Shown here: in pieces, positions 3,436-3,879 of the stretch | Layout of the letters: each line of letters starts with the position of its first letter | Numbering within the stretch: position 1 is the first letter of the stretch | From: a virus | Lineage: Duplodnaviria > Heunggongvirae > Uroviricota > Caudoviricetes | IMG/VR virus record: IMGVR_UViG_2703719365_000001 | Coordinates: 1-7,006 of that record | Length of the DNA stretch: 7,006 bases | Direction: 5' to 3' (one strand) | The notes under the pieces: generated by a model | What the model saw: only the letters and a program-made list of their open reading frames with translations | What the model was told of the DNA's origin: nothing | Databases searched by the model: none | Translations under genes and position numbers: made by a program

Positions 3436-3879
3436 ATGCAATTTAAAGATTTACCAGAGGATATTCAGAAAATAGCTGCGGATACGCTTAAAGCCCATTT
3501 ATAGGTGCTTGATTTAACAAAGGAACCAAAGGCGAATCTGGAAAATATATCCCGTAACGTGCGAGATGTTTTTGTCGGGCTGTATGCTTATGGCAATGAA
3601 AAGCACGAGGAACATATTCAAAATGGTTGCATTAATAAATTTCAACAAAATATCAAACTTCCTGTTGCTGATAAAACAGAGCAGAAAACAGAGGTATTAG
3701 TATTCTGGAATACCGTTGAGGCTATCGCCAGGAGCACGATGTTGGAGTTTAACAACATCAATCATTCCGGGATCGACACTCATCAATCATCACATCGTGA
3801 GGGGTTTTCCATTCTTCTAACTCTGTTACAAGAGCAAGGCGAATATCCTCAGCCGACATCAAACGACACTGAGCAATAG
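3436..3879 (+). pseudogene. Gene with a strong RBS interrupted by an in-frame amber codon (TAG 3502-3504) after codon 22. The same frame continues as the 124-codon track ORF 3505-3879. Candidate nonsense pseudogene or readthrough/leader arrangement.
   Basis: GGAGG at 3424-3428 and ATG at 3436. The frame runs ATG...CAT TTA TAG GTG..., so the stop and the GTG at 3505 are in the same frame. There is no SD-like sequence before the GTG at 3505. Flanked by 76-nt and 107-nt non-coding spacers. Confidence 0.5.

Follow-up and report, generated by a model that had tools for sequence, protein, structure and literature searches.

Nonsense and frameshift pseudogenes are familiar from the resident lambdoid prophages, cryptic or in decay, of STEC such as E. 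coli O157, in which a non-essential early gene is inactivated by a single-base change and the lesion is then inherited clonally. Other accessory genes of lambdoid phages are classed as morons, which Juhala, Hendrix and co-workers are said to have described as insertions with their own promoter and their own terminator. Where a stop codon interrupts a reading frame, translation can resume downstream, and translational restart is known from early lacI nonsense mutants and from T4 rIIB. In E. coli reporters with juxtaposed stop and start codons, removal of the Shine–Dalgarno (SD) sequence lowered translation of the second cistron 42-fold, a drop far above that seen when the two codons overlap or are spaced apart (Osterman et al. 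2013, PMC3592434). The authors suggest that this acts as a safeguard against restart at the codon adjoining a stop (PMC3592434). The gene that we describe here most resembles the decaying-prophage pseudogenes, with which it shares the single-base inactivation of a non-essential early gene, clonal inheritance, a second lesion 1.5 kb away and independent lesions in other strains. Its sole peculiarity relative to them is that the codon following the stop is GTG, which hides the lesion in annotation.

The window, by which we mean the whole 7006-nt stretch of DNA analysed, is the complete contig LGBG01000019.1 of the draft assembly GCA_001281905.1, from an E. coli O157:H7/NM isolate belonging to BioProject PRJNA285020 (PMC4609726). 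It matches Stx-converting prophages and their lambdoid relatives best; of 135 complete genomes with a match, 122 have 80% or more of the query covered. Every gene in the window lies on the + strand, and the features, in order, are as follows.

First in the window's gene order, + strand: RecT (partial) and a YqaJ-type exonuclease, from open reading frames (ORFs) and profiles.
After the exonuclease, + strand: SSB-like protein, phrog_743, from a profile.
Directly before the gene at 3436, + strand: YfdP, then YfdQ/DUF2303, from profiles.
3424..3428, + strand: Shine–Dalgarno GGAGG, from the sequence; retained in relatives.
3436..3879, + strand: the whole gene for a 147-aa phage early protein, phrog_1363, read as a nonsense allele, from the profile and homologues.
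3436..3501, + strand: start codon and codons 1–22 (MQFKDLPEDIQKIAADTLKAHL), predicted first helix of the N-terminal module, now a putative stand-alone 22-aa product, from PGAP, PHROG, alignment and AlphaFold2.
3502..3504, + strand: amber TAG, derived on comparison with relatives, from an ancestral TCG (Ser23) by a C-to-A transversion at 3503.
3505..3879, + strand: codons 24–147 and the stop, the remainder of the gene without translation signals of its own; gene callers report a 124-aa GTG-start protein.
3987..4865, + strand: PAPS-reductase-like gene, directly after the gene at 3436.
After the PAPS-reductase-like gene, + strand: two small ORFs, an Ead/Ea22-like protein, two more ORFs and the start of a DUF551 gene, from ORFs and profiles.

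This gene order points to the early-left, exonuclease-to-integrase accessory region of a Stx-type lambdoid prophage.

Read directly from the + strand, the interrupted gene has a GGAGG at 3424–3428, 7 nt before the ATG at 3436, and this is the strongest SD-like match of the gene set with the exception of that of Ead/Ea22. The ATG opens a run of 22 sense codons (3436–3501, translated MQFKDLPEDIQKIAADTLKAHL) that ends at an in-frame TAG (3502–3504), and the GTG at 3505, directly after the stop, begins a 124-codon ORF with its terminal TAG at 3877–3879. The sequence and the ORF list thus bear out the layout given in the first-pass annotation, including its statement that the GTG has no SD of its own: the 20 nt upstream of it (CGCTTAAAGCCCATTTATAG) hold no SD-like motif. 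Other in-frame candidate starts are a GTG at 3559, which likewise has no SD, and an ATG at 3739, with AGGAG ahead of it, from which no more than 46 residues would remain.

We aligned the window with six relatives from complete genomes (L001–L006, about 91% to 99.8% identity), in each of which PGAP annotates one uninterrupted CDS from the exact equivalent of position 3436. The GGAGG is retained in the relatives. Three of the six CDSs are 147 aa long and end at the equivalent of 3879; the other three, of 131 or 158 aa, have a mosaic 3′ half and variant 3′ ends. Codon 23 is TCG (Ser) in all six, as well as in two further relatives, L007 and L008, which makes eight haplotypes reaching down to 93% identity, and TAG in the window and in L009, L011 and L012. 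Against the closest intact relative (L001, OkiPb01685), the C-to-A change at 3503 is the sole difference over the 591 nt that comprise the gene and both spacers. Because all six relatives carry TCG and L001 differs at 3503 only, the alignment identifies TAG as the derived state and TCG as the ancestral one. More distant homologues have a variable sense residue in this column (S, A, T, N, V or E), and none of those aligned has a stop there. These data support the recent nonsense inactivation that the first-pass annotation had listed among its options, with a sense codon in every homologue that bears the module. The sense codon is none of those that the annotation had suggested (CAG, TAT or AAG).

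The TAG is a real and reproducible allele, because the same base is present in at least three further independent assemblies, which differ in sample and pipeline: L009 (GCA_014710995.2, representing 12 places), which is an NCBI assembly, and L011 (SRR11919509, representing 3 places) and L012 (SRR11927465), which are Logan assemblies. Identity to the window is 100% over 6980 nt for L009, 99.98% over 4094 nt for L011 and 100% over 4086 nt for L012. Since the carriers are ~100% identical over 4–7 kb, the comparison shows that the mutation arose once and recently and has been passed on clonally with the prophage, within a single E. coli O157 lineage. An exact-sequence look-up finds the 124-aa GTG-start product called on 19 contigs; in the abundance count it stands at 14 contigs, against 898, 761 and 518 for intact 147-aa variants. 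We inspected 4 of up to 17 TAG-type contigs base by base. Among 123 complete E. coli genomes and 60 phage records, not one is identical over the 81 nt around the TAG, and there is no exact match among GTDB species representatives or in IMG/VR. An apparently different downstream gene in L011 and L012 proved to be a difference in the start chosen by the gene caller, in the same context.

The reconstructed 147-aa protein matches phrog_1363 over residues 1–128 (E = 1.6e-63), and four more PHROGs (phrog_9419, 2151, 6937 and 33007) match residues 1–~55 only, from profile position 1. All of these have the N-terminal module in common with the window's copy, which differs in being interrupted at codon 23. 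HMMER, run exhaustively against 1.84 billion representatives, returned 27 proteins at E of 0.001 or better, more than 20 of which align residues 1–~55 with their own residues 1–~55; the family is thus very narrow, with 27 representatives. Searches of the 147-aa protein against Pfam, NCBIfam and PADLOC gave no family, and a PDB profile search gave no solved relative (best E = 0.58). At 90% identity, the 147-aa and 124-aa proteins fall into a cluster that is represented by a 273-aa YfdQ protein and contains both YfdQ and phrog_1363 members, so that its size of 593 is not a count for the phrog_1363 family. The mixture is presumably a clustering artefact, perhaps due to a fused or mis-called sequence.

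In an alignment of the distant representatives, the invariant columns are M1, K4, L6, P7, Q11, A14, L22, K32, N41, R43 and F46. Seven of these 11 fall within residues 1–22, which the alignment marks as the start of the protein's most conserved part, and the window's GTG/Val falls in column 24, where these proteins have T, E, K or V. Homologues all begin at the same Met as the ATG at 3436, which is the true start, and homology bears out the 22-codon segment as coding. They neither start at the GTG/Val position nor leave the 22-codon frame unconserved, outcomes that the first-pass annotation had named as telling against it; the opposite is seen, with the supposed leader being the best-conserved segment. 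An AlphaFold2 model of one homologue (P0002), built from a 26-sequence alignment, has a mean pLDDT of 52.7 and is confident for residues 1–55 only, where it places a helix at 8–22, a loop at 23–31 and a second helix at 32–55 (module pLDDT 74–79). The N-terminal module is accordingly predicted to be a helical hairpin, and the TAG would cut right after helix 1. A Foldseek search of BFVD places a 52-aa protein of Escherichia phage phi191 on this hairpin (84% identity, TMt 0.90), with noise for the rest; the phi191 protein consists of the N-terminal module alone.

The module follows the pattern M[EQ]FKDLP..Q..A.......L....L....K...DN..RNVR.AF.GLY and, in lambdoid phages of enterobacteria, precedes C-terminal tails of many unrelated kinds. 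Conversely, unrelated N-termini are found ahead of the C-terminal module (KTEQKT...VFWNTVEAIARS...NINHSGIDTHQSSHREG). The comparison thereby defines a conserved N-terminal two-helix module of ~55 residues that is joined to many unrelated tails.

Relatives have a continuous protein to which the sequence on either side of the stop is homologous in a single frame, and the stop is derived and recurs in independent data. Nonsense inactivation of a conserved 147-aa early gene is the best explanation, and on the comparisons above we hold it to be very probably correct. In the sampled lineage, Ser23 (TCG) became TAG through a single C-to-A change at 3503. Ribosomes loaded at the strong ribosome-binding site (RBS) and ATG would then terminate after 22 residues and release the first helix only. 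The full-length protein would be lost, and a product truncated at its N-terminus would be made in trace amounts at best. The mutation would presumably be tolerated because the gene is an accessory one of the early region and stays silent in lysogens. Polarity on the PAPS-reductase-like gene is possible in principle. Such polarity would be expected to be small during early transcription, which is antiterminated by N as in lambda.

The surroundings of the stop fit the same reading. Between 1860 and ~5300 (3.4 kb) the window differs from L001 at two places only, and both differences disrupt a gene. The second is a 1-nt deletion between 5013 and 5014 (GCGCCGC to GCGCGC), a −1 frameshift in a 67-aa ORF; the 54-aa ORF at 4862..5026 (+ strand) is the frameshifted copy of this conserved ORF, which is WP_000157000.1 in relatives. 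The TAG carrier L009 has the deletion as well, and L001, L008 and L002 do not. In strain 97-3250 the same 67-aa ORF has suffered an independent +1 change in an A7 run and is marked "frameshifted" by PGAP.

Further lesions affect the gene at 3436 itself. In L007 (E. coli 2013C-3181) a −1 change in a T5 run (window ~3569–3573) is accompanied by no PGAP annotation at that place, and two 87-aa products (P0019 and P0035) are frameshifted forms of this kind. Another product, P0008 (127 aa, 14 contigs), reflects a late frameshift, and P0036 (76 aa) is a further frameshifted product. In L008 (SRR31628366, representing 2 places) the ATG has become ATA at 3932–3934 (window 3436–3438) with the TCG intact, and gene callers resort to that GTG too and report the same 124-aa protein; this type was found through a look-up of the exact 124-aa product, a search that could only find lesions of that kind. 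At least five different lesions of this 444-nt gene are thus circulating in E. coli. We attribute the stop at codon 23, with high confidence, to the ordinary mutational decay of a resident prophage. The event is of an ordinary and already well-understood kind, in which a point mutation turns an accessory gene of a prophage into a pseudogene.

The alternative that survives best is that ribosomes terminate at the TAG and re-initiate at the adjoining GTG, yielding a useful 124-aa product from a gene that stays partly functional. In its stop closely before an in-frame GTG and its well-translated message, the locus is like the lacI and T4 rIIB restarts and E. coli termination–reinitiation. The stop and the GTG are adjacent, the upstream RBS is strong, the 124-codon frame is intact in all carriers inspected, and the independent ATG-to-ATA lesion of L008 likewise leaves that frame callable, a hint that a truncated form is tolerated or useful. 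However, the locus differs from those precedents in that the GTG abuts the stop and has no SD, the juxtaposed geometry that gave the 42-fold drop and is reported to be strongly disfavoured (PMC3592434). Because of these two features, restart would be expected to be very inefficient. Its product would also be deprived of helix 1, the site of seven of the 11 invariant residues; the carriers are clonal, so that their intact frame is uninformative on selection, and the L008 evidence is biased by the exact-sequence look-up. Low-level restart at 3505, or read-through, may take place to judge from the bases alone, but we consider a functional restart product improbable.

A related suggestion accepts the disruption and asks whether it, or the N-terminal truncation of the gene, is favoured in lysogens and not merely tolerated. 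It draws on the fact that both differences from L001 in 3.4 kb are disruptive, on the at least five lesions, and on the finding that the stop at codon 23 and the ATG-to-ATA change, two independent lesions, both take away the N-terminus only and leave the 124-codon frame open. Were loss favoured, the protein or its N-terminal helix would be costly to the host, or a restart product would have a function of its own. We regard favoured loss as decidedly unlikely and keep to ordinary decay.

Some coliforms isolated from nature are reported to harbour amber suppressors, and a third proposal is that a host suppressor tRNA reads the TAG through. A change from TCG to TAG is exactly correctable by a Ser-inserting suppressor of the supD type; because the ancestral codon is TCG (Ser), it is supD, and not the supE of the first-pass annotation, that would be predicted to restore the wild type. 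Against this, the 7-kb window contains no tRNA gene, and the in-frame TAG is not conserved across relatives, being a rare derived allele of one clonal lineage with no sign of maintenance. Moreover, the frameshift in the neighbouring ORF of the same lineage is beyond any suppressor. Plain decay fits better, and suppression strikes us as very improbable.

An evolved 22-codon leader peptide coupled to, or regulating, the main ORF, which had also been proposed, could appeal to the short frame having a strong RBS that the long one lacks, an arrangement of this window only; yet the homologues are all continuous from the same Met, none has the stop–start arrangement, the "leader" is their most conserved segment, the GTG residue is not conserved and there is no RNA structure, so that the idea is scarcely credible. 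Equally negligible is a sequencing or assembly error, for which the source, a short-read draft assembly from 2015, and the presence of the TAG allele in no complete genome could be cited, against the identical base in the further assemblies named above, at least three in number.

Explanations at the RNA level were considered separately and rejected. The window contains no Rfam family and no tRNA, the RNA structure around the TAG is nothing unusual (z = −0.22), and the 3′ spacer folds no better than its shuffles (z = +0.46).

The GTG that follows the stop leads annotation pipelines to report a plausible 124-aa "hypothetical protein" (14–19 contigs), which hides the lesion. Surveys of start sites or of small ORFs could mistake such cases for leader peptides.

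The gene had also been described as an independently acquired moron, AT-rich and bracketed by unusually long spacers. In its small size, its lower GC, its place in a mosaic accessory region and its variable 3′ half and downstream neighbour it is indeed like the lambdoid morons. Its GC content is 39.9%, against 47.4% for the window, which agrees with the description as AT-rich; low GC is, however, common to neighbours such as yfdP, two genes upstream (40.8%), and the SSB-like gene stands at 43.7%. The flanking spacers of 76 and 107 nt are not unusual, since the two preceding junctions measure 74 and 63 nt and 60–110 nt is the local norm. Unlike the lambdoid morons, the gene has no promoter-like or terminator-like site close by on its strand and shares its neighbours' orientation and operon. 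A consensus scan found no sigma-70-like site on the + strand at 3300–3440, the only + strand sites lying at 469 and 6410, and no terminator-like site is present on the + strand at 3880–3986. The gene is co-oriented within the early-left operon and lies behind yfdQ in all relatives inspected, where the variable parts are its 3′ half and the next gene. It is thus an accessory mosaic early gene and not a moron in the strict sense.

Some minor observations concern the rest of the window. The PAPS-reductase-like protein encoded at 3987..4865 is called "NinC" in some phage records, and its gene start has no SD-like motif. Its first ~145 residues match two kinds of PADLOC model, SspD (9.3e-15) and DndC (~2e-4), and the match region is an ATP-pyrophosphatase-type domain common to phosphorothioation enzymes. 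At the left end, positions 1..26 align neither to L009, which is otherwise 100% identical, nor to any other relative, and alignments begin at 27; this segment, inside recT, probably reflects a junction in the assembly graph where the contig ends. Alignments to near-identical prophages break at ~5300–5324, ~6250 and ~6592, in the Ead/Ea22-to-DUF551 part, and these breaks look like mosaic recombination junctions. Three substitutions relative to L001 are clustered at 5301–5317, beside one such junction.
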